A stretch of 42,576 nucleotides of DNA from a virus, in the IMG/VR virus record IMGVR_UViG_3300016665_000124, one strand, 5' to 3'. Under the pieces are notes generated by a model that worked only from the letters and a program-made list of their open reading frames with translations, searched no databases and was not told the origin of the DNA. A program made the position numbers and the translations under genes. Numbering within the stretch: the first letter of the stretch is position 1; each line of letters starts with the position of its first letter. Positions 4,090 to 38,943 of the stretch are shown piece by piece.

Positions 4090-4733
4090 TTCTTGCGGCT
4101 GTAGGCCACACCTTTGCCTTTGGAATGGTTGGCATAGCCACCGTTAACGAGATCCGCCTCACCGTTTGGATCGTTATGGATGAAGGCCTCACTGTTATAG
4201 CCAATCACGACGCTGTAGTGGCCGCCGCCAGTGGGTCGGCTTGCTGGACCTTTGTGCAGCCAGCCAGCCGCTACGGGGCGACCAGCATTGATCTCACGCT
4301 CAAGTAAATCTGGCGTGGCATTCGTGACGAACCGTGGCTGCAGGCCAAGACTGGTCAATGCACGCACCTGCGCCGAGGCATCTGTGCTGTCGCCATAGCG
4401 TGCACGGATCTTGTTGTATTCGTCATCATTGCGCACCTTGCCATAGAAGCGCGCAATCATTGCGCAGCTACTTGAGAAGCACTCGCGATAGCCTGTGCCG
4501 CTGGCGTTATCGTTCTGGTACTCATAGGCAACAGGTAGTGGATTGGCGTGATTCTGCTGCTTGCCGTCCTGGCTCCATACCTGAAACCATTCGGTATCGC
4601 GTCGCATCACTTCCGCATAAGATTTGCCGCTTAGCAGAGCCTGCTCTAGCTGGCTGATAGCGGCCAGCTGGTGAGGGAGGCCACGGTTGAAGCGGAAGAG
4701 CTGCTCCAGGGTGATGGGTGCTGGGTTGCTCAT
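4026..4733 (-). CDS. Peptidase C39-like (papain-fold) cysteine peptidase, candidate endolysin
   Basis: YQNDNASGTGYRECFSSSCAM (candidate catalytic Cys) and GGHYSVVIGY (candidate His), with two small membrane ORFs immediately upstream. Confidence 0.55.
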   Translation of the reverse strand: MSNPAPITLEQLFRFNRGLPHQLAAISQLEQALLSGKSYAEVMRRDTEWFQVWSQDGKQQNHANPLPVAYEYQNDNASGTGYRECFSSSCAMIARFYGKVRNDDEYNKIRARYGDSTDASAQVRALTSLGLQPRFVTNATPDLLEREINAGRPVAAGWLHKGPASRPTGGGHYSVVIGYNSEAFIHNDPNGEADLVNGGYANHSKGKGVAYSRKNWLPRWQVEGLGSGWALLVMP

Positions 4734-17489: not shown

Positions 17490-18019
17490 CTACCGCCGGC
17501 GTGCCTTGTCTAGTTCTTTTTTCTCGCGTTCGCCTTTCACTTCATAGTAAGCAGCAAAATGAACGAACTCGGCATCAGTCAGTTCGGTGCGAAGCCGACT
17601 GACTGTCATGCCAAGCTCAGTCGCAAGGAAGAACTCGAAGAATAGCCACGAGTCTCCCTCTAGTCTTTTTTTGCTTCTTCCAGGCTGGCATCACCACCAA
17701 GACCGAACAGGAATAGCTCCAGTTCGTTCAGCACACGCTCCGGTAGTTCGCGTTGCAGCTTGGCTGCATCGGCAGCTGCAAATGCCTTGGTGCCATCCTC
17801 AAGTTCAGCAATCTGGCACAGCATTTGCGTGCTGATCTCTAGGGCTTCATCTGAACCAGCCAAGGTCGTGGCTTTTTTGCGATCAGATCTAGTGATCGGC
17901 TTGAAATACAAGTCCATCACCGGATCGCCGGCATCGTTCTTGATGGTGAACTTACGGCGCTGGTTGAGATCAAAAGCGCCCGTGAGCAAGTCAACAGGGC
18001 GCGTGGATGCAGCAGGCAT
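17490..18019 (-). CDS. Tail assembly chaperone GT fusion made by -1 programmed ribosomal frameshift
   Basis: The -1 frame after A_AAA_AAA (17672-17666) is open for 58 codons (RLEGDSWLFFEFFLATELGMTVSRLRTELTDAEFVHFAAYYEVKGEREKKELDKARRR) to a TAG at 17492-17490. I checked every triplet by hand. Confidence 0.7.
17660..18019 (-). CDS. Tail assembly chaperone (gpG-like)
   Basis: 119-aa acidic ORF between the tube and tape measure genes. It ends ...GAA GCA AAA AAA GAC TAG and so contains an A7 slippery run. Confidence 0.75.
   Translation of the reverse strand: MPAASTRPVDLLTGAFDLNQRRKFTIKNDAGDPVMDLYFKPITRSDRKKATTLAGSDEALEISTQMLCQIAELEDGTKAFAAADAAKLQRELPERVLNELELFLFGLGGDASLEEAKKD
17666..17672 (-). 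promoter_or_regulatory. Slippery heptamer A_AAA_AAA for the G/GT -1 frameshift
   Basis: Seven consecutive T on the plus strand, in the X_XXY_YYZ register relative to the G frame. Confidence 0.7.
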
Positions 18020-18438
18020 TAAATGCTCAGGGTAAGGGTTCCGCTAGATACAAAATTGATGGTTACAATTTCGATCTCTCCAACGGTAGCACTGTATTCA
18101 GTGCTGGTAACCACAATGGTTCCTGTGATTTTTTTGCCGCCGGTTTCGTCCAGGTAAAGCTCAACCGATGCGTCGGCTTCGTCGGTGACCTGGTTGACAT
18201 CCTTGATCAGGTCCAGCTTGTCGCCGGCGCCTGGAGCGTCGTACATGACCTCAATGGTGCCTGATCCGCTGATCAGTCCACCGATGTTGGCGCGATAGGT
18301 GGCGCCATGCACGGTGGCGTCATAGGACTCCTTCTCGACGGTCATCGACCAGGATCGCACAGCAGCGATTTCGGATAGGCCACCGCTGCCAGCCTTATCA
18401 AAGAAGACCGTGCCTTGTTGCCCGCGATAAAAAGCCAT
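18019..18438 (-). CDS. Major tail tube protein, paralog B
   Basis: 139 aa. MAFYRGQQGTVFFDKAG...RSWSMTVEKES...GATYRAN.GGLISGSGT...EYSATVGEIE..TINFV is colinear with the adjacent paralog. Confidence 0.65.
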   Translation of the reverse strand: MAFYRGQQGTVFFDKAGSGGLSEIAAVRSWSMTVEKESYDATVHGATYRANIGGLISGSGTIEVMYDAPGAGDKLDLIKDVNQVTDEADASVELYLDETGGKKITGTIVVTSTEYSATVGEIEIVTINFVSSGTLTLSI

Positions 18439-30843: not shown

Positions 30844-30945
30844 CCGGACGCCAAACCCATTGGCATGACTGGGTTCGGGCGCAAGTCGGACGCAAGCGGA
30901 CGCAAGTCGGACGCCAAAACCCTTGCAAACACTGGGCGGACGCAA
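30844..30945 (+). repeat. Left iteron array: six copies of TCGGACGCAA-like 10-mers
   Basis: Copies start at 30844, 30875, 30886, 30896, 30907 and 30936 (8-10/10 match). The four central ones are spaced 10-11 bp apart. Confidence 0.85.
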
Positions 30946-30956
30946 AAACGGGGGTT

Positions 30957-31040
30957 CCCCTTACCTTCCCTATACGTAAAAAATGTTCACCCCGTAACAC
31001 TGCCCCCCCTTTCTAAAAATCTGATTTGATTTACCCTTAT
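30957..31040. promoter_or_regulatory. AT-rich spacer between inverted iteron arrays (candidate DNA unwinding element; may also carry a leftward promoter)
   Basis: Contains an A6 run (30978-30983), a C7 run (31003-31009), ttctaaaaatctgatttgattt, and no convincing ORF. Confidence 0.5.
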
Positions 31041-31137
31041 TTGCGTCCGACAAGGCAAGAAGGTAGATAGGGACAAGGTTTTTGCGTCCGAAATTTGCGT
31101 CCGACTTGCGTCCGACACGGACGCAATTTGCGTCCGA
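31041..31137 (-). repeat. Right iteron array: five perfect TTGCGTCCGA copies plus one inverted copy
   Basis: Perfect 10-mers at 31041, 31082, 31095, 31106 and 31128, and an inverted ACGGACGCAA at 31117. CGGACGCAA-t-TTGCGTCCG forms a 9-bp-arm palindrome abutting the primase stop codon. Confidence 0.9.
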
Positions 31138-31139
31138 CG

Positions 31140-33503
31140 TCATGCCCATGAATCCAGCCTGAGACCCACCAAGAGACGATCACGACTCTTTCCGCCGCCT
31201 CTGTCGGACGCAAGTTTCGGGAAGATCTGCCGCAATGCCGGCATCAGTAGACGCGGTGCCTTGACCGTCCGATCAGCCGGCGGATCCATCAGCCAGCGCC
31301 CACCAGCGTCGATATAACCTTCCTCGCGATACCAGTTCTGTAGAGCGTCCCAAACGCGTTTGCAAGACACTTGTGCATTTTCATCCCAGGTCAATCCGAC
31401 GGCATCGCAGAAATCCCAAAGGTGACAAGATCCACGCCTTACATCTTGCATAGCCTGGTTGCCGGTGGCGTAGTCGATACCATCCGAAACACTGAGCGCC
31501 ATGCCTTCAAGAAGCCAATTTAAGAACGATGGGCAGATTTGCTCTTGGATGAAAGATGGGTCGTCCTTTAGCCTTGGATCTGCCTGTAGATGCGTCGGCT
31601 CTGTTGGTGTTGCCATGAAAGTTTTGCGGAACTTAAACACATGGAACCGCGTCTCAATGGCAGCCTGCTCACCAGTCAGTGATGGATCCTTGTTCAAATT
31701 GAACACAAACAGCACGGACGGTACAAACTGAGACTCCTGCACACCCTTCAACTCGTAAGACAATTCCTCGCCGCTGATTGCGGCTTTAAGTGATTGCAGG
31801 TTGTCAATACTGACGAATTGCGAGTTTTCACTGGACCAATTAACCGATGCACCACGAAGCGGCGCGATTGGAAACTTGCGGCCTTGGTCGTACTGCCGAA
31901 AATCAGCCAGAGTGCAAGAGGTGAAATTGCGACTACCGAGCGTGTCTCGCAATGCCGTGCGGATGGTGTCCTTGCCGTTGCTGCCTTCACCGATCATCAG
32001 CACTGCGCGAGGACGGCCTCTGGTGGCGCGATATTTGGCAAGATCAAGGCCGCTGCCAAGGATGCGCTGGATAGTGTCACGGTCACCAGGCTCTACGGCT
32101 TCCAGCAATCGCCATAGGTGCTGTGCGTTGGCTTGAGGGTCGTAGTCATAGTCGGTGACGTAGGTAAAGGCCACATCCGGGTTATGCGGTGTGAAGGACA
32201 GGTCGAGCTTGCGGCCTGACCATGACCAAGACACCACGCCATTGCGGCAGTTAATGGCATTCGATGGGTTGACATCAACCGGCTTGAGGAGCCGCCGCAT
32301 CCATGCCAGGGCTTCATCCACATATTTGGGACGGCGCCATGGGTAGACCGGTTCCGACTGCTTTTCGGTTCTGACATGCAGCAACGAGAGAAAAGCCGCC
32401 AGCTCAGGCGCTATCTCCTCGTCGGGCCTTGCTTGGTAATGCGTGCCATTCCAGCAATGGAGTACACCGTCAACACAAATCCAGCGGTCACGGGGATGCT
32501 TGAAGACATGGGTGACAGCAAGATCAAGCCATTCGGTGCCGGCCTTGTCATAGAGCTGCAGGTTGACGACCTCACCATCTGATGCCTGCCGACGCGGCCG
32601 AGGCATTGGCGTCGCTGGCCTCCAGCCGTGATGCCGCGCCCAGTACCAGAAGGTGCCAGCGGTGATGCGCTCACCACCTGAGGATGCGATCTGCTCAAGG
32701 CCTTGCCATTGCGGGCTGTGCTGCTGCATCAGCTCAATGGCGAGGTCGGCGCTACCGCAGGCTTGGATCAGCCCCCAGAAGATGTTGCGGTAGATGTGGT
32801 AAGTGCCGCTACCTGGTGTGCGTGGCGGGATAACAGCAAGGGCATCACGGATGTCGCTAATGCTGCGCTCTACTGGTTCGGTGTGCTGCTGTGCTGGCTT
32901 CTGGTGCTGATAGAAGGCCTCGGACGGCAGGACCGCTTCGATGTCGGCAACGGTGTAGCGATGGCCAGCGCTAGTGACCATCTGGCACGGATCACCGAGA
33001 CTGCCATCAGCCATGGCGTAGTAGCTGCCGGGCAACCGCATGACGCGCGAGGCGTTTTTGATGCTGCGGTCGGCATCGCAATAGTCGAGTAGTCGCGCCT
33101 GCACCAGCTCCCAGTGAGCCGGTGTAATCGGATCGGTAAGAACCCAGTAGCTGTGGATGGACTTGCCGCCGGTATTGATCTGAAACGTGGGCTCAGGCAA
33201 CTTGAGCGACTGCCATGCGGTGAGCTGCCATTCGCGCGGTCGGTCGTCCCATTCAGCAAAGAAGGCACGACAGGCGGTGATGTCGGCATTGGTGTCACCG
33301 CCATCGTTGATGACGACGTAGACGCCACGACCTTCGGCTTGCCATTGCTCGATGAGCTTCTTGGAGGCACCACCTTTGCGGCCCTTGTCGGTGCCCTTGT
33401 CTGGGTGGTCGCGATGGAGGAAGGCGCGAAGACGGATGGCGCCGGCGGGTTTGCCGAGCAGGGCAATGAACCGACGAGCTTCATCAAAGTCGATTGGTTT
33501 CAT
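31140..33503 (-). CDS. Bifunctional primase (prim-pol/RepB'-like N-terminus) and SF3 (P4/D5-type) helicase
   Basis: 787 aa. The N-terminus has GVYVVINDGG...AFFAEWD...GGKSIHSYWVL (primase-polymerase-like), and the C-terminus has Walker A VLMIGEGSNGKDT in a P4/D5-like NTPase context. Confidence 0.8.
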   Translation of the reverse strand: MKPIDFDEARRFIALLGKPAGAIRLRAFLHRDHPDKGTDKGRKGGASKKLIEQWQAEGRGVYVVINDGGDTNADITACRAFFAEWDDRPREWQLTAWQSLKLPEPTFQINTGGKSIHSYWVLTDPITPAHWELVQARLLDYCDADRSIKNASRVMRLPGSYYAMADGSLGDPCQMVTSAGHRYTVADIEAVLPSEAFYQHQKPAQQHTEPVERSISDIRDALAVIPPRTPGSGTYHIYRNIFWGLIQACGSADLAIELMQQHSPQWQGLEQIASSGGERITAGTFWYWARHHGWRPATPMPRPRRQASDGEVVNLQLYDKAGTEWLDLAVTHVFKHPRDRWICVDGVLHCWNGTHYQARPDEEIAPELAAFLSLLHVRTEKQSEPVYPWRRPKYVDEALAWMRRLLKPVDVNPSNAINCRNGVVSWSWSGRKLDLSFTPHNPDVAFTYVTDYDYDPQANAQHLWRLLEAVEPGDRDTIQRILGSGLDLAKYRATRGRPRAVLMIGEGSNGKDTIRTALRDTLGSRNFTSCTLADFRQYDQGRKFPIAPLRGASVNWSSENSQFVSIDNLQSLKAAISGEELSYELKGVQESQFVPSVLFVFNLNKDPSLTGEQAAIETRFHVFKFRKTFMATPTEPTHLQADPRLKDDPSFIQEQICPSFLNWLLEGMALSVSDGIDYATGNQAMQDVRRGSCHLWDFCDAVGLTWDENAQVSCKRVWDALQNWYREEGYIDAGGRWLMDPPADRTVKAPRLLMPALRQIFPKLASDRGGGKSRDRLLVGLRLDSWA

Positions 33504-33676
33504 GCCTGCTCCTGCGACTTGCTGGCCGGCAGGATGCCGTCACGATGGAATCGCATGGCCTCCTGGATCACGAGGCGCAATGTTGCAGATCGTGACAGGC
33601 CAGCTGGCCGCCAGGAATCAAGCCATTGCAGCTGCTCTGCGGTCAGTTGCACGGATAACGGATGGGCGAGTGGCAT
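33500..33676 (-). CDS. Ribbon-helix-helix (CopG/Arc-like) regulator, first gene of the leftward arm
   Basis: From ATG 33676: MPLAHPLSVQLTAEQLQWLDSWRPAGLSRSATLRLVIQEAMRF, a beta-strand plus two helices. The longer start at 33727 would bury the divergent promoter region. Confidence 0.6.
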   Translation of the reverse strand: MPLAHPLSVQLTAEQLQWLDSWRPAGLSRSATLRLVIQEAMRFHRDGILPASKSQEQA

Positions 33677-33693
33677 GGCGCCTGCGGTGACGC

Positions 33694-33721
33694 TTGACAG
33701 GCTAGCGGGTTCCGCTAGAGT
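33694..33721 (+). promoter_or_regulatory. Candidate rightward promoter (TTGACA - 16 nt - TAGAGT)
   Basis: Perfect -35 at 33694-33699 and a 4/6 -10 at 33716-33721, 25 nt upstream of the ATG at 33746. A mirrored leftward TTGGCA-17-TAGCCT lies on the other strand. Confidence 0.5.
33702..33718. promoter_or_regulatory. Operator-like perfect palindrome CTAGCGG-gtt-CCGCTAG within both promoter spacers
   Basis: 7-bp arms seen directly. Outer arms CGCTTG (33691-96) and CAAGCG (33725-30) extend the symmetry. Confidence 0.6.
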
Positions 33722-33745
33722 TGCCAAGCGTCACGCCCAGGTTCA

Positions 33746-34174
33746 ATGGAGATAGCCCCATGCCCTAAGTGCGGGCAAGAATCGCCGTTCAAGCTCAGAC
33801 CAGACACGCAGCACCATGGCGAGATTCGCTGCCCTACACATGGGCATCTGTGGATTTCAAAACCGACTGAACTAAAGACTCCACGTCGCAAGATTAATCG
33901 CGAGTTATTTGAGCTGGTGCCTGGCGATATGCAAGAGTTTTGCTGGACATGCTTAAGGCATCGTGACTTATTGAAAACGATTAGGCCGTCAGTGTCACTG
34001 CAGGCACATCATATTTTTGAAGCGCAACATGGCGGTATAGATCATCGCGACAACGTTCAAATTCTTTGTGATGAATGCCATGCTGCCGTACATCGAACAC
34101 GTGGGCAGTTGCATCGTTATGACTCAATCTCTAATTTTCAAGCATTTGTACGGCACGAACGACTTACGCGATGA
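33746..34174 (+). CDS. HNH endonuclease with an N-terminal zinc ribbon, first gene of the rightward arm
   Basis: CPKCG...CPTHGH, then CWTC...LQAHHIFEAQHGGIDHRDNVQILCDECHAAVH (HNH motif). Confidence 0.8.
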   Translation: MEIAPCPKCGQESPFKLRPDTQHHGEIRCPTHGHLWISKPTELKTPRRKINRELFELVPGDMQEFCWTCLRHRDLLKTIRPSVSLQAHHIFEAQHGGIDHRDNVQILCDECHAAVHRTRGQLHRYDSISNFQAFVRHERLTR

Positions 34175-34428
34175 CCACCACCATCAGCATTCGCCGCTTA
34201 CTTGAGCTGCGCATTAGCCATGGCGATCAATTGGCATTGGATTATCTGAGCCTTGCAGCATTGCTGCGCTATGCGCCTGGCGTGGCGTGCGTACAGCAGT
34301 TGCAGCAGAACTGGAATGTCAGCCAATCAAGCGTGAGCCGTCGAGTAGCGCACCTGGCGACGGCAGGATTGATTGAGGTGACCAATGGCAGTGGTGCGTA
34401 TCACGTCCATGAATTGAAACTCCTATGA
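34171..34428 (+). CDS. Small winged-helix DNA-binding protein
   Basis: 85 aa. NVSQSSVSRRVAHLATAGLIEV is a recognition-helix plus wing pattern. ATGA overlaps at both ends. Confidence 0.6.
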   Translation: MTTTISIRRLLELRISHGDQLALDYLSLAALLRYAPGVACVQQLQQNWNVSQSSVSRRVAHLATAGLIEVTNGSGAYHVHELKLL

Positions 34429-35777
34429 ACCTCCGCCCATACCAGCAGCAGCTGGTGACTGACATCCGCCTGCAGTACCAGCTGGGTCATAGGCGTGTGC
34501 TGGCGGTGCTGCCGACCGGCGGGGGCAAGACCGTGATTTTCAGCCACATCGCCCAATCCGCCGCGCGCAAGGGCAACCGCGTCTGCATCTTGGTGCATCG
34601 GCAGGAGCTGCTGGATCAAGCCAGCCGCAACCTGCAGGCGATGGGTGTTGCGCATGGCCGCATCCAGGCTGGCCGCGGCATGGACCTAAGCCATGCGGTG
34701 CAGGTAGCAAGTGTCGGCACTATCGCGCGGCGGCTGCACCTACTGCCGCGTGACTTCCTGCAGCTGATCGTGGTCGATGAGGCCCACCACACCACGGCCG
34801 GCACATGGTCAAAGGTGGTGGAGCACTTTGCATCCGCGCACCTGCTGGGTGTGACGGCAACGCCGATCAGAGGTGACGGCCGCGGCCTTGGTGAGCACTA
34901 CCAGTCCATGGTGCTGGGGCCCAGCGCCGCATGGCTGACAGACCATGGATTCCTGGCCCAGGCCAAAGTGCTGGCACCACCTGGCTTCAATGGCGCCGGC
35001 CTGCGCAAGCGGATGGGTGACTACGACACCAAGCAAGCCGAGCAGCGCGTCACGGAGATCCATGGCGACTGCTACAGCCACTACTGCAGGCACCTGAGTG
35101 GCCAGACGGCGATCGCGTTCTGTTGCTCAGTGGCCCATGCCGAGGCTGTGGCGGACCTGTTCCGGCGGCAGGGCATTGCTGCTGCGAGCATTGACGGCAG
35201 CATGGATGGCCCAACACGTCGCGGCCTGCTGGAGGACCTCGGCGCCGGGCGGCTCAAGGTGCTGACCAGCTGTGCGTTGATCGGCGAAGGCGTTGACGTG
35301 CCATCTGTTGGTGGCTGCATCCTGCTGCGGCCCACGCAGTCGGTTGCCCTGCACCTGCAGATGATCGGCCGATGCCTGAGGCCCAGTGGCGACAAGGTGG
35401 CGGTTGTGCTTGACCATGTCGGCAACACGTTGCGGCTAGGCCACCACCTGGAGGATCGCGACTGGAGCCTTGATGGCGTGAAGAAGCGCGATCGTGAGGC
35501 AGCACCAAGCGTCAAGGTCTGCCCTAAGTGTTTCGCCACTGCTGCCAGCACCGCCCAGGCCTGCCGCGAATGCGGACATCAATTCCGTGCTGAGGTGCGT
35601 GAGCTGAAGGTGGTTGAAGGCGAGTTGCAGGAGGTCGGATTCCGCAGCCGCTACCGCGAGCAGGGCAAAGCCCAGAGCCTGCAGGACTTGATCCACCTAG
35701 GCCAGAGCCGTGGCTACAAGAACCCGGTAGGTTGGGCGAAACACGTCCTTTATGCCCGGAGCCTCAAAGGCAACTGA
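34425..35777 (+). CDS. SF2 DEAD/DEAH-box helicase with a C-terminal zinc ribbon
   Basis: Walker A LPTGGGKT, DEAH box VVDEAHH, TATP (motif III), and a later CPKCF...CRECGH. Confidence 0.85.
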   Translation: MNLRPYQQQLVTDIRLQYQLGHRRVLAVLPTGGGKTVIFSHIAQSAARKGNRVCILVHRQELLDQASRNLQAMGVAHGRIQAGRGMDLSHAVQVASVGTIARRLHLLPRDFLQLIVVDEAHHTTAGTWSKVVEHFASAHLLGVTATPIRGDGRGLGEHYQSMVLGPSAAWLTDHGFLAQAKVLAPPGFNGAGLRKRMGDYDTKQAEQRVTEIHGDCYSHYCRHLSGQTAIAFCCSVAHAEAVADLFRRQGIAAASIDGSMDGPTRRGLLEDLGAGRLKVLTSCALIGEGVDVPSVGGCILLRPTQSVALHLQMIGRCLRPSGDKVAVVLDHVGNTLRLGHHLEDRDWSLDGVKKRDREAAPSVKVCPKCFATAASTAQACRECGHQFRAEVRELKVVEGELQEVGFRSRYREQGKAQSLQDLIHLGQSRGYKNPVGWAKHVLYARSLKGN

Positions 35778-36111
35778 GCAACAAATCCAGCAGCACATCC
35801 GCCTGGCCTGCAGCAACGGACCGGTGCGCCTGTTCCGCAACAACACCGGCACGCTTCGGGACCAGCACGGCCGGCCTGTGACGTTCGGCTTGGCCAAGGG
35901 CAGCGCCGACCTGATCGGCTGGACCACGCGCACGATCACACCCGAGATGGTGGGCCAGCAGGTGGCGGTCTTCACCAGCATCGAGGTCAAGAGCGCCACG
36001 GGTCGCATCAGGTCCGAGCAGCAGCAATGGCTGGAGGCGGTGCAGGCCGCTGGTGGAATCGCTGGAGTGGCGCGCAGCGTGGAGGATGCCAGAGAATGTG
36101 TCGGTTTGTGA
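35752..36111 (+). CDS. VRR-NUC domain nuclease
   Basis: GSADLIGW...IEVKSATGRIRSEQQQWLEAVQAAGG matches the PD-(D/E)XK VRR-NUC pattern. Pairing with an SF2 helicase is typical. Confidence 0.75.
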   Translation: MPGASKATEQQIQQHIRLACSNGPVRLFRNNTGTLRDQHGRPVTFGLAKGSADLIGWTTRTITPEMVGQQVAVFTSIEVKSATGRIRSEQQQWLEAVQAAGGIAGVARSVEDARECVGL

Positions 36112-36189: not shown

Positions 36190-36330
36190 ATGAAACTGTC
36201 TGAAAAGCTTGCCGAGCTGATTGCCCAGCTTGAAGAATCTGATCGCCGCTTCCGCCAGGAAGTGGATGGCCTGATCAAGGCCGCTGATCAGATTATTGAA
36301 ACGGTAGATCGAATGATTGAGGAAGACTAA
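36190..36330 (+). CDS. 46-aa coiled-coil micro-protein
   Basis: Hand-translated MKLSEKLAELIAQLEESDRRFRQEVDGLIKAADQIIETVDRMIEED. A strong terminator follows 6 nt downstream. Confidence 0.45.
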   Translation: MKLSEKLAELIAQLEESDRRFRQEVDGLIKAADQIIETVDRMIEED

Positions 36331-36336
36331 TCCACC

Positions 36337-36358
36337 GGGGCCCTGCGGGGCCCCTTTT
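36337..36358 (+). terminator. Rho-independent terminator
   Basis: GGGGCCC-tgcg-GGGCCCC forms a 7-bp all-GC stem with a 4-nt loop, followed by TTTT (36355-36358). Confidence 0.7.
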
Positions 36359-36368
36359 ATATATTGAC

Positions 36369-38910: not shown

Positions 38911-38943
38911 TGCCGGCATTAGGGTCCTTCTCTAATGCCGGCA
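38911..38943. promoter_or_regulatory. Perfect 12-bp inverted repeat TGCCGGCATTAG-(9 nt)-CTAATGCCGGCA
   Basis: Seen directly, about 100 nt downstream of ssb, followed by TTCTTCC. May be a terminator-like hairpin or a protein-binding site. Confidence 0.6.

Follow-up and report, generated by a model that had tools for sequence, protein, structure and literature searches.

A predicted divergent promoter pair sharing one putative symmetric operator, probably bound by the small protein encoded beside it, between the two gene arms of a siphovirus-type genome

The IMG/VR virus record IMGVR_UViG_3300016665_000124, a stretch of 42,576 nucleotides (nt) that we refer to as a whole as the window, is a complete-looking siphovirus-type genome in which two gene arms diverge across a 70-base-pair (bp) gap, leftward from 33676 and rightward from 33746, as an earlier reading of the sequence (the original prediction) had proposed. 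This gap holds two predicted divergent promoters, which overlap each other almost completely, and a putative symmetric operator, and the first gene of the leftward arm encodes a protein of 58 amino acids (aa) that is the candidate regulator of both. Relatives for comparison, all of them metagenomic phage contigs, were collected by an IMG/VR scan with the primase encoded by the second leftward gene, which returned 67 loci with 43-99% identity; the promoter unit was examined in the 54 loci that include the upstream region, and these provide 28 distinct 23-nt cores and 37 distinct regions for the analysis of -35 boxes. The promoter boxes, their spacers and the central palindrome all lie where they had originally been placed, and the elements of the locus are the following.

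33500..33676, minus strand: gene for the 58-aa probable ribbon-helix-helix repressor, a conserved open reading frame (ORF) and the first gene of the leftward operon
33540..33721: approximate extent of an exchangeable specificity cassette (protein core plus operator, ~190 bp), mapped from the relatives onto the window
33687..33734: quasi-palindrome of 48 bp, with outer arms made of the -35 boxes plus GTGAC/GTCAC
33694..33699, plus strand: rightward -35 box TTGACA, followed by a 16-nt spacer to the -10 box
33699..33704, minus strand: leftward -10 box TAGCCT (bottom strand), read on the top strand as AnnnTA, which is invariant in 28/28 cores; predicted start ~33692
33702-33718: perfect palindrome CTAGCGG-gtt-CCGCTAG, as read in the sequence
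33702..33707: left operator half-site CTAGCG, over -15 to -10 (leftward promoter) and -26 to -21 (rightward promoter)
33713..33718: right operator half-site CGCTAG, over -15 to -10 (rightward promoter) and -26 to -21 (leftward promoter)
33716..33721, plus strand: rightward -10 box TAGAGT, of the form TAnnnT that is invariant in 28/28 cores; predicted start ~33728
33722..33727, minus strand: leftward -35 box TTGGCA (bottom strand), followed by a 17-nt spacer to the -10 box

The rightward promoter is the sole match to 10 of 12 consensus positions in the 42.6-kb window, all other matches reaching 9/12. Among the relatives, 53 of 54 have exactly one AnnnTA-N11-TAnnnT unit at the equivalent position, with the hexamers always 11 nt apart, and the only columns that are invariant in the 28 distinct cores are A1, T5, A6, T18, A19 and T23, which correspond to positions -7, -11 and -12 of the leftward -10 box and to positions -12, -11 and -7 of the rightward -10 box. 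Both -7 positions fall outside the symmetric half-sites and their neighbours have no symmetry; the invariance at these positions is therefore predicted by sigma-70 recognition and not by an operator. TTG-type -35 boxes at a distance of 16-18 nt were found for the rightward promoter in 34 and for the leftward promoter, there with spacings of 16-17 nt, in 31 of the 37 distinct relatives, and in many relatives the leftward promoter is better than that of the window, as in L006 with TTGACA-16-TACACT. From this computed architecture we conclude that the window holds an overlapping divergent pair of predicted promoters of the sigma-70 type, and that this arrangement is conserved in the relatives. 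No phage RNA polymerase was found in the window, where the large ORFs encode tail, head and replication proteins, and promoters for the host polymerase are therefore expected; an N4-like phage RNA polymerase acting on hairpin promoters was considered and rejected, the 1847-aa ORF being a lambda J-type tail protein.

Judging from the positions of the -10 boxes, transcription would start at ~33728 and ~33692, i.e. at sites ~36 bp apart, and each -35 box would overlie the start region of the other promoter. RNA polymerase covers roughly -55 to +20 of a promoter. Given this footprint and the promoter geometry, the region can therefore be occupied by one RNA polymerase at a time. The distance between promoter and repressor gene differs among the relatives: the leader is ~15 nt in most of them, and in the L022/L023 clade the ATG of the repressor gene falls within the rightward -35 region, at a distance of only 9 nt from the leftward -10 box, so that the repressor mRNA would be leaderless or nearly so.

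The symmetry of the region extends beyond the perfect palindrome. Outer arms had been predicted, and they are present as GTGACGCTTG at 33687-33696 and CAAGCGTCAC at 33725-33734; with 10 nt each they are longer than originally described and are offset by one base. Essentially, these arms are the -35 boxes, and the additional symmetry of the GTGAC/GTCAC outer extension is confined to the window's own clade and is not conserved in the relatives. For the core, dyad symmetry was computed by pairing column i with column 24-i in the 28 distinct cores. Columns 4 and 20 are complementary in the Watson-Crick sense in 27/28 cores, with G..C, C..G and T..A as the types observed, and complementary pairs are similarly maintained by compensatory changes at columns 8/16 (23/28), 7/17 (19/28) and 9/15 (15/28). 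At column pairs 2/22, 3/21, 10/14 and 11/13 dyad symmetry is absent from the 28 cores. The covariation score of 0.389 compares with 0.151 for shuffled data, in which the observed value was reached in 0 of 500 shuffles, and with 0.07-0.145 when the partner columns were slid. Sigma-70 sets no complementarity between the third bases of two independent -10 boxes, and a two-fold symmetric protein does.

On this basis the symmetric unit is read as two putative 6-bp half-sites (columns 4-9 and 15-20) with centres 11 bp, or one helical turn, apart. The half-sites have the Arc-type geometry of a pair of short inverted boxes that are separated by about a helical turn and overlap a promoter, and two half-sites of 6 bp at a distance of 11 bp suit a dimer of dimers better than a single dimer. 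Of the original suggestion that one dimeric regulator gates both arms, the single shared dyad site is upheld by the covariation, and a dimer of dimers would take the place of the dimer. A search of the window for further operators (CTAGCGG-N3-CCGCTAG with at most 3 mismatches) gave a single match, at 4215, which is at the level expected by chance.

The gene for the small protein is the first of the leftward operon, and its stop codon overlaps the start codon of the primase gene (ATGA, 33500-33503). The start of the conserved ORF is the ATG equivalent to 33676, and independent gene calls likewise give a protein of 58 aa. The short form of the ORF, on which the original prediction relied, is thus the conserved one. 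A longer form that begins with TTG at 33727 and encodes 75 aa was rejected, since the relatives do not conserve the extension upstream and some of them have a stop in it; its rejection removes the conflict that it would have created with the leftward promoter. In the AlphaFold2 model of the monomer (predicted local distance difference test (pLDDT) score 82) an extended N-terminus is followed by helices at residues 13-22 and 29-45, an arrangement in which the strand of a ribbon-helix-helix protein would form only in the dimer. The loop between the helices, where ribbon-helix-helix proteins have a G-x-S/T/N turn ahead of the second helix, reads A-G-L-S-R-S in the window's clade, and the S-R-S with which helix 2 begins hardly varies among family members. 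Alignment with hhalign to Arc, Mnt, CopG, ParD, NikR, omega and CcdA kept the register of strand and helices (P = 0.001). In addition, 9 of 15 family members match PHROG 4738, annotated as 'transcriptional repressor' in an entry that states no fold (best E = 5e-6), and the Joint Genome Institute (JGI) names one homologue an Arc/MetJ-type ribbon-helix-helix regulator. A profile search against the PDB gave weak matches only, to the N-terminus of MUS81, the dimeric 2kke protein and MazE9. Taken together, these observations, which are indirect, make it probable that the 58-aa protein has a ribbon-helix-helix fold.

The link between this protein and the operator comes from the comparison of relatives, in which the motif at the position of the presumed N-terminal DNA-reading strand sorts cleanly with the class of the operator:

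strand motif LSVQ(L/F): operator class CTAG...CTAG
strand motif IPLRL: operator class GTATAC...GTCTAC
strand motif TP(I/V)RL: operator class GTAGCC...GCTAC
strand motif FSLRL: operator class GTA(G/A)CC...GGTTAC
strand motif ISVLF: operator class TTAGC...GCTAA

The motif occupies residues 7-11 (LSVQL, IPLRL), and representatives of the classes are L006 for A, L003 for B, the window for C, L033 for C' and L044 for B'. Across 33 distinct combinations the distance between operators is correlated with that between the small proteins (r = 0.83) and hardly with that between the primases (r = 0.19). In a partial Mantel test of operator against small protein the observed value was reached in 0 of 5000 permutations, and on the primase tree the operator classes are interleaved. 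The computed boundaries of the covarying segment are sharp. Between L028 and L031 identity is 90-100% along the primase and the small protein's C-terminal tail, 52-67% over the protein core and the operator, and 100% again from the right -10 box onward. The pairs L023/L035, L018/L019, L014/L017 and L009/L012 have the same dip in identity, and between the window and L005 identity breaks exactly at the start of the primase. We conclude from these comparisons of sequence that repressor core and operator form one predicted specificity cassette, which would be moved as a unit by recombination between related phages. The small leftward protein is most likely the regulator of the putative operator, as had been suggested originally; its position as the best candidate follows from the correlation and the exchange of cassettes, and for its fold the support is indirect. 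Three repressor-operator classes (A, C and C') occur together in one metagenome, in loci L007, L018 and L033, all of which stem from IMG sample 3300045999.

Combining the promoter architecture, the dyad covariation and the exchange of cassettes, we suggest that the two divergent promoters share one symmetric operator and that this operator is probably bound by the 58-aa ribbon-helix-helix repressor, which would shut both promoters. In this model, (i) early in infection the host polymerase would fire both promoters, with one polymerase at a time on the DNA, (ii) the leftward transcript would encode the small repressor and, co-transcribed and translationally coupled to it, the primase/helicase, (iii) the accumulating repressor would, as a dimer of dimers, occupy both half-sites from one face of the helix, and (iv) the bound repressor would cover -26 to -10 of both promoters and in that way turn off both early operons. 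Because the genes for the repressor and the primase would both be transcribed from the leftward promoter, the outcome would be negative feedback on the replication operon, combined with shut-off of the rightward early operon. The locus had originally been described as a switch, a term that overstates what a single autorepressor acting on both promoters would do: shared autorepression amounts to joint shut-off or feedback, and bistability finds no support in the observations.

Several observations weigh against this model. Ribbon-helix-helix families were absent from the Pfam matches of the 15 members searched, even at E = 10, a Foldseek search with the AlphaFold2 monomer gave nothing significant (no match with E < 1), and the hhalign probability was just 21%. 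The leftward promoter of the window is weak, with 8/12 consensus positions, which is below the threshold of the scanner; a leftward -35 box is not recognisable in L018, L022, L032 and L047, and in some clades the boxes are weak. Perfect palindromes with arms of 7 nt or more and a loop of 5 nt or less are common in the window (35 observed versus ~20.5 expected). Since the statistics within the window are unexceptional, the significance of the palindrome at 33702-33718 rests on its position and on its conservation in relatives. The half-sites are imperfect in the largest clade (GTATAC / GTCTAC), where 8-bp direct repeats are an alternative reading. Finally, repressor gene and operator are ~25 bp apart, and their co-inheritance could reflect physical linkage; a functional pairing of protein and operator is the better reading because the edges of the cassette are tight and because the dyad covariation is an independent observation.

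How much of the symmetry calls for an operator at all depends on what two facing promoters would generate by themselves. Without any operator, TTGACA would face TGTCAA and TAnnnT would face AnnnTA, the symmetry would follow automatically, and the small protein would do something else. The promoter boxes do force much of the symmetry, the invariant columns being -10 determinants and the outer arms -35 boxes, and palindromes of the 7-3-7 type are common in the window. What such an arrangement does not explain is the compensatory symmetry at positions that sigma-70 leaves free, namely the third base of the -10 box and three spacer bases on each side (27, 23 and 19 of 28 cores), nor the parallel between changes at these positions and those in the neighbouring protein, and we regard it as unlikely. 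Alternatively, the operator is genuine and is bound by the winged-helix protein encoded at 34171-34428, which had been named as a second candidate in the original prediction, by another phage protein or by a host protein. A MarR-like winged-helix gene is indeed nearby on the rightward arm, and the assignment of the small protein to the ribbon-helix-helix class is no more than probable. However, the first rightward gene varies among the relatives and the winged-helix gene is not a conserved neighbour of the operator, whereas the small leftward protein adjoins the operator in all of them; moreover, the swapped cassettes, whose right flanks are identical, contain just the operator and the core of this protein, and a host factor would not account for at least five operator classes on near-identical phage backbones. 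Binding by a factor other than the small protein is for these reasons improbable.

A third possibility is that the quasi-palindrome is a replication origin, a loading site for the primase/helicase, or a cruciform or hairpin signal. It does adjoin the primase/helicase gene, and the 54-nt stretch folds as a strong quasi-hairpin at the level of DNA (z = -5.3). The sequence of the site does not track the primase, though, as the low correlation given above indicates; the invariant positions also match -35/-10 spacing on both strands; and the cluster of iterons at 30845-31213 is by far the better candidate for an origin. We consider a function of this kind very improbable, and return to repression of both promoters by the small protein as the model to be compared with known systems.

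The system that appears closest functionally is Arc of phage P22, which binds a partly symmetric operator consisting of two inverted boxes within a promoter and acts as the repressor of Pant and Pmnt, two divergent promoters that overlap (PMC2724298); ribbon-helix-helix proteins in general bind DNA as at least a dimer of dimers (PMC2724298). Judged from the sequences, the two would have in common a small phage repressor and a symmetric operator in the spacer of divergent overlapping promoters. They differ in that the window protein is without detectable membership in the Arc family (no Pfam match), that the window shows a single regulator, neither a Mnt-like partner nor an antirepressor gene having been seen, and that the window element stands at the head of the two replication arms in a phage that is apparently non-temperate. 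In addition, the window has an almost fully symmetric layout, each half-site lying on -15 to -10 of one promoter. A second likeness is to plasmid pMV158, in which copG precedes the replication-initiation gene repB in an operon and CopG, a minimal ribbon-helix-helix repressor, autoregulates through a pseudo-symmetric element over its own promoter Pcr (PMC2724298). The predicted leftward operon of the window similarly has the repressor gene first and a replication gene next, which would be co-transcribed, and the operator lies over the operon's own promoter. Unlike the CopG element, which overlaps the -35 of a single promoter, the operator of the window is placed between two -10 boxes, and a second, divergent operon would come under its control as well. 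The bidirectional promoters of Warman and Grainger have one shared -10 element and starts 18, 10 or 23 bp apart; symmetry inherent in promoter elements gives rise to them, polymerases in the two orientations compete with each other, and transcription both ways can be subject to a local repressor (PMC12825309). With two separate -10 boxes 11 nt apart and predicted starts ~36 bp apart, the promoter pair of the window falls outside this class.

In the immunity regions of lambdoid phages, repressor and operators are exchanged as a specificity module. The cassette described here resembles them in that the DNA-binding part of the regulator covaries with the operator and both are swapped between near-identical genomes, and differs in its size of ~190 bp, in having one operator and in the fold of the regulator. 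A further difference concerns lysogeny. No integrase or lysogeny module was seen in the window: family searches returned no integrase, and for every presumed gene encoding more than 300 aa the match was to a family of structural or replication proteins. In a search of 185,579 species genomes for hosts, a relative was found only on one 4-kb scaffold of Pseudomonadota, which belongs to a metagenome-assembled genome, and the NCBI copy of one homologue of the small protein likewise stems from a metagenome assembly. The single scaffold among so many species genomes argues against a common prophage state. The associations with lysogeny that characterize the immunity region of a temperate phage, i.e. 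an integrase or a maintenance repressor, or occurrence as prophage, were thus not seen in these searches, and the phage is apparently non-temperate.

In its mechanism, the model repeats the design of P22 Arc and pMV158 CopG and by itself opens no new question. The locus is a new example of a known design, for which the comparative support is unusually clean, and the presence of specificity cassettes in apparently virulent phages is possibly of interest. One could go further and see in the cassette an immunity-like device for specificity in apparently virulent freshwater siphoviruses, in which at least five classes and recombination at the edges would reflect an arms race between repressors and operators without lysogeny; we put this forward tentatively and think it rather doubtful. 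If it were true, selection for differing specificities would act during co-infection, either through avoidance of cross-repression by the early-gene shut-off protein of a rival or through its use for superinfection exclusion. Should the model of shared repression itself be confirmed, the locus would represent a very compact (~35 bp) and almost perfectly symmetric node at which one small repressor governs both early replication arms, and would hint that virulent phages vary the specificity of their regulators in much the way that temperate phages vary their immunity. The several natural, orthogonal pairs of repressor and operator that the comparison of genomes has catalogued would then be of use in synthetic biology as small repressors with bidirectional promoters, and would offer a tractable case for the evolution of specificity in the reading of DNA by a beta-sheet.

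The wider context of the element in the window is given by the two arms and the genes closest to it.

33676 down to ~3200, minus strand: leftward arm, with the 58-aa protein, primase-polymerase/D5-helicase, beta clamp, large terminase, portal and head genes, and further the genes for a tape-measure protein, a lambda-J-like tail protein and a tail-fibre protein
33746 to the end of the window and beyond it to ~3079, plus strand: rightward arm, with the HNH endonuclease, a small winged-helix protein and a superfamily 2 (SF2) helicase, and further VRR-NUC, an exonuclease, RecT, SSB and others
31140..33503, minus strand: primase-polymerase / D5-type helicase of 787 aa, assigned by family matches and translationally coupled to the small repressor gene
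33746..34174, plus strand: HNH endonuclease (Pfam HNH match), the first rightward gene in the window, a probable insertion that lies outside the control element
34171..34428, plus strand: winged-helix (MarR-like) protein of 85 aa with a weak MarR_2 match, the alternative regulator of the earlier reading

The HNH gene is missing from the 99%-identical relative L001, in which the winged-helix gene follows the promoter, and its G+C content of 0.41-0.47 differs from the ~0.6 of its surroundings; it is probably a recently inserted mobile gene of the homing type. A search for near-identical DNA with positions 31000-36000 against 50,697 phage records gave no match. The best match of the N-terminal 300 aa of the primase among annotated phages is the primase-polymerase of cyanophage S-2L (38% identity), and no match to PurZ (adenylosuccinate-synthetase-like) was found in the subset of ORFs that was scanned.

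Downstream of the primase gene the 9-mer CGGACGCAA has 10 exact copies, five on each strand, which are all its copies in the window and all lie at 30845-31213, together with 3 copies with one mismatch. This segment comprises the 345-bp gap downstream of the primase stop (31140) and the sequence just inside the 3' end of the primase gene, and the copies fall into two clusters, mainly opposed, that flank an AT-rich dip (G+C content of 0.45 at 30950-31100). From this arrangement, 30845-31213 is a strong candidate for an iteron-type replication origin.

The right half of the palindrome had also been reported to recur elsewhere, and the 13-mer GGGTTCCGCTAGA is indeed found as an exact copy at 18036-18048. 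This copy is a coincidence of coding and not a second site. It falls within the codons GTA-TCT-AGC-GGA-ACC-CTT (V-S-S-G-T-L), 15 nt ahead of the stop of a tail gene (18019..18438, minus strand), and in 80 relatives the site varies at synonymous third positions in a manner unlinked to the operator class. As a second operator site the copy was rejected: L114, on the same contig as L038 and thus with a class-A operator, is without a matching half-site, as are L100 and L103, which lie on the contigs of L017 and L058 with variant class-C operators.

On the rightward arm, two strong terminator-like hairpins were observed on the plus strand, at 36337-36354 and 38911-38943. The former (GGGGCCC-tgcg-GGGCCCC followed by a T-run) ends the first rightward gene block, past a 58-aa ORF that stops at 36330, and a TTGACA motif lies downstream of it at 36365.

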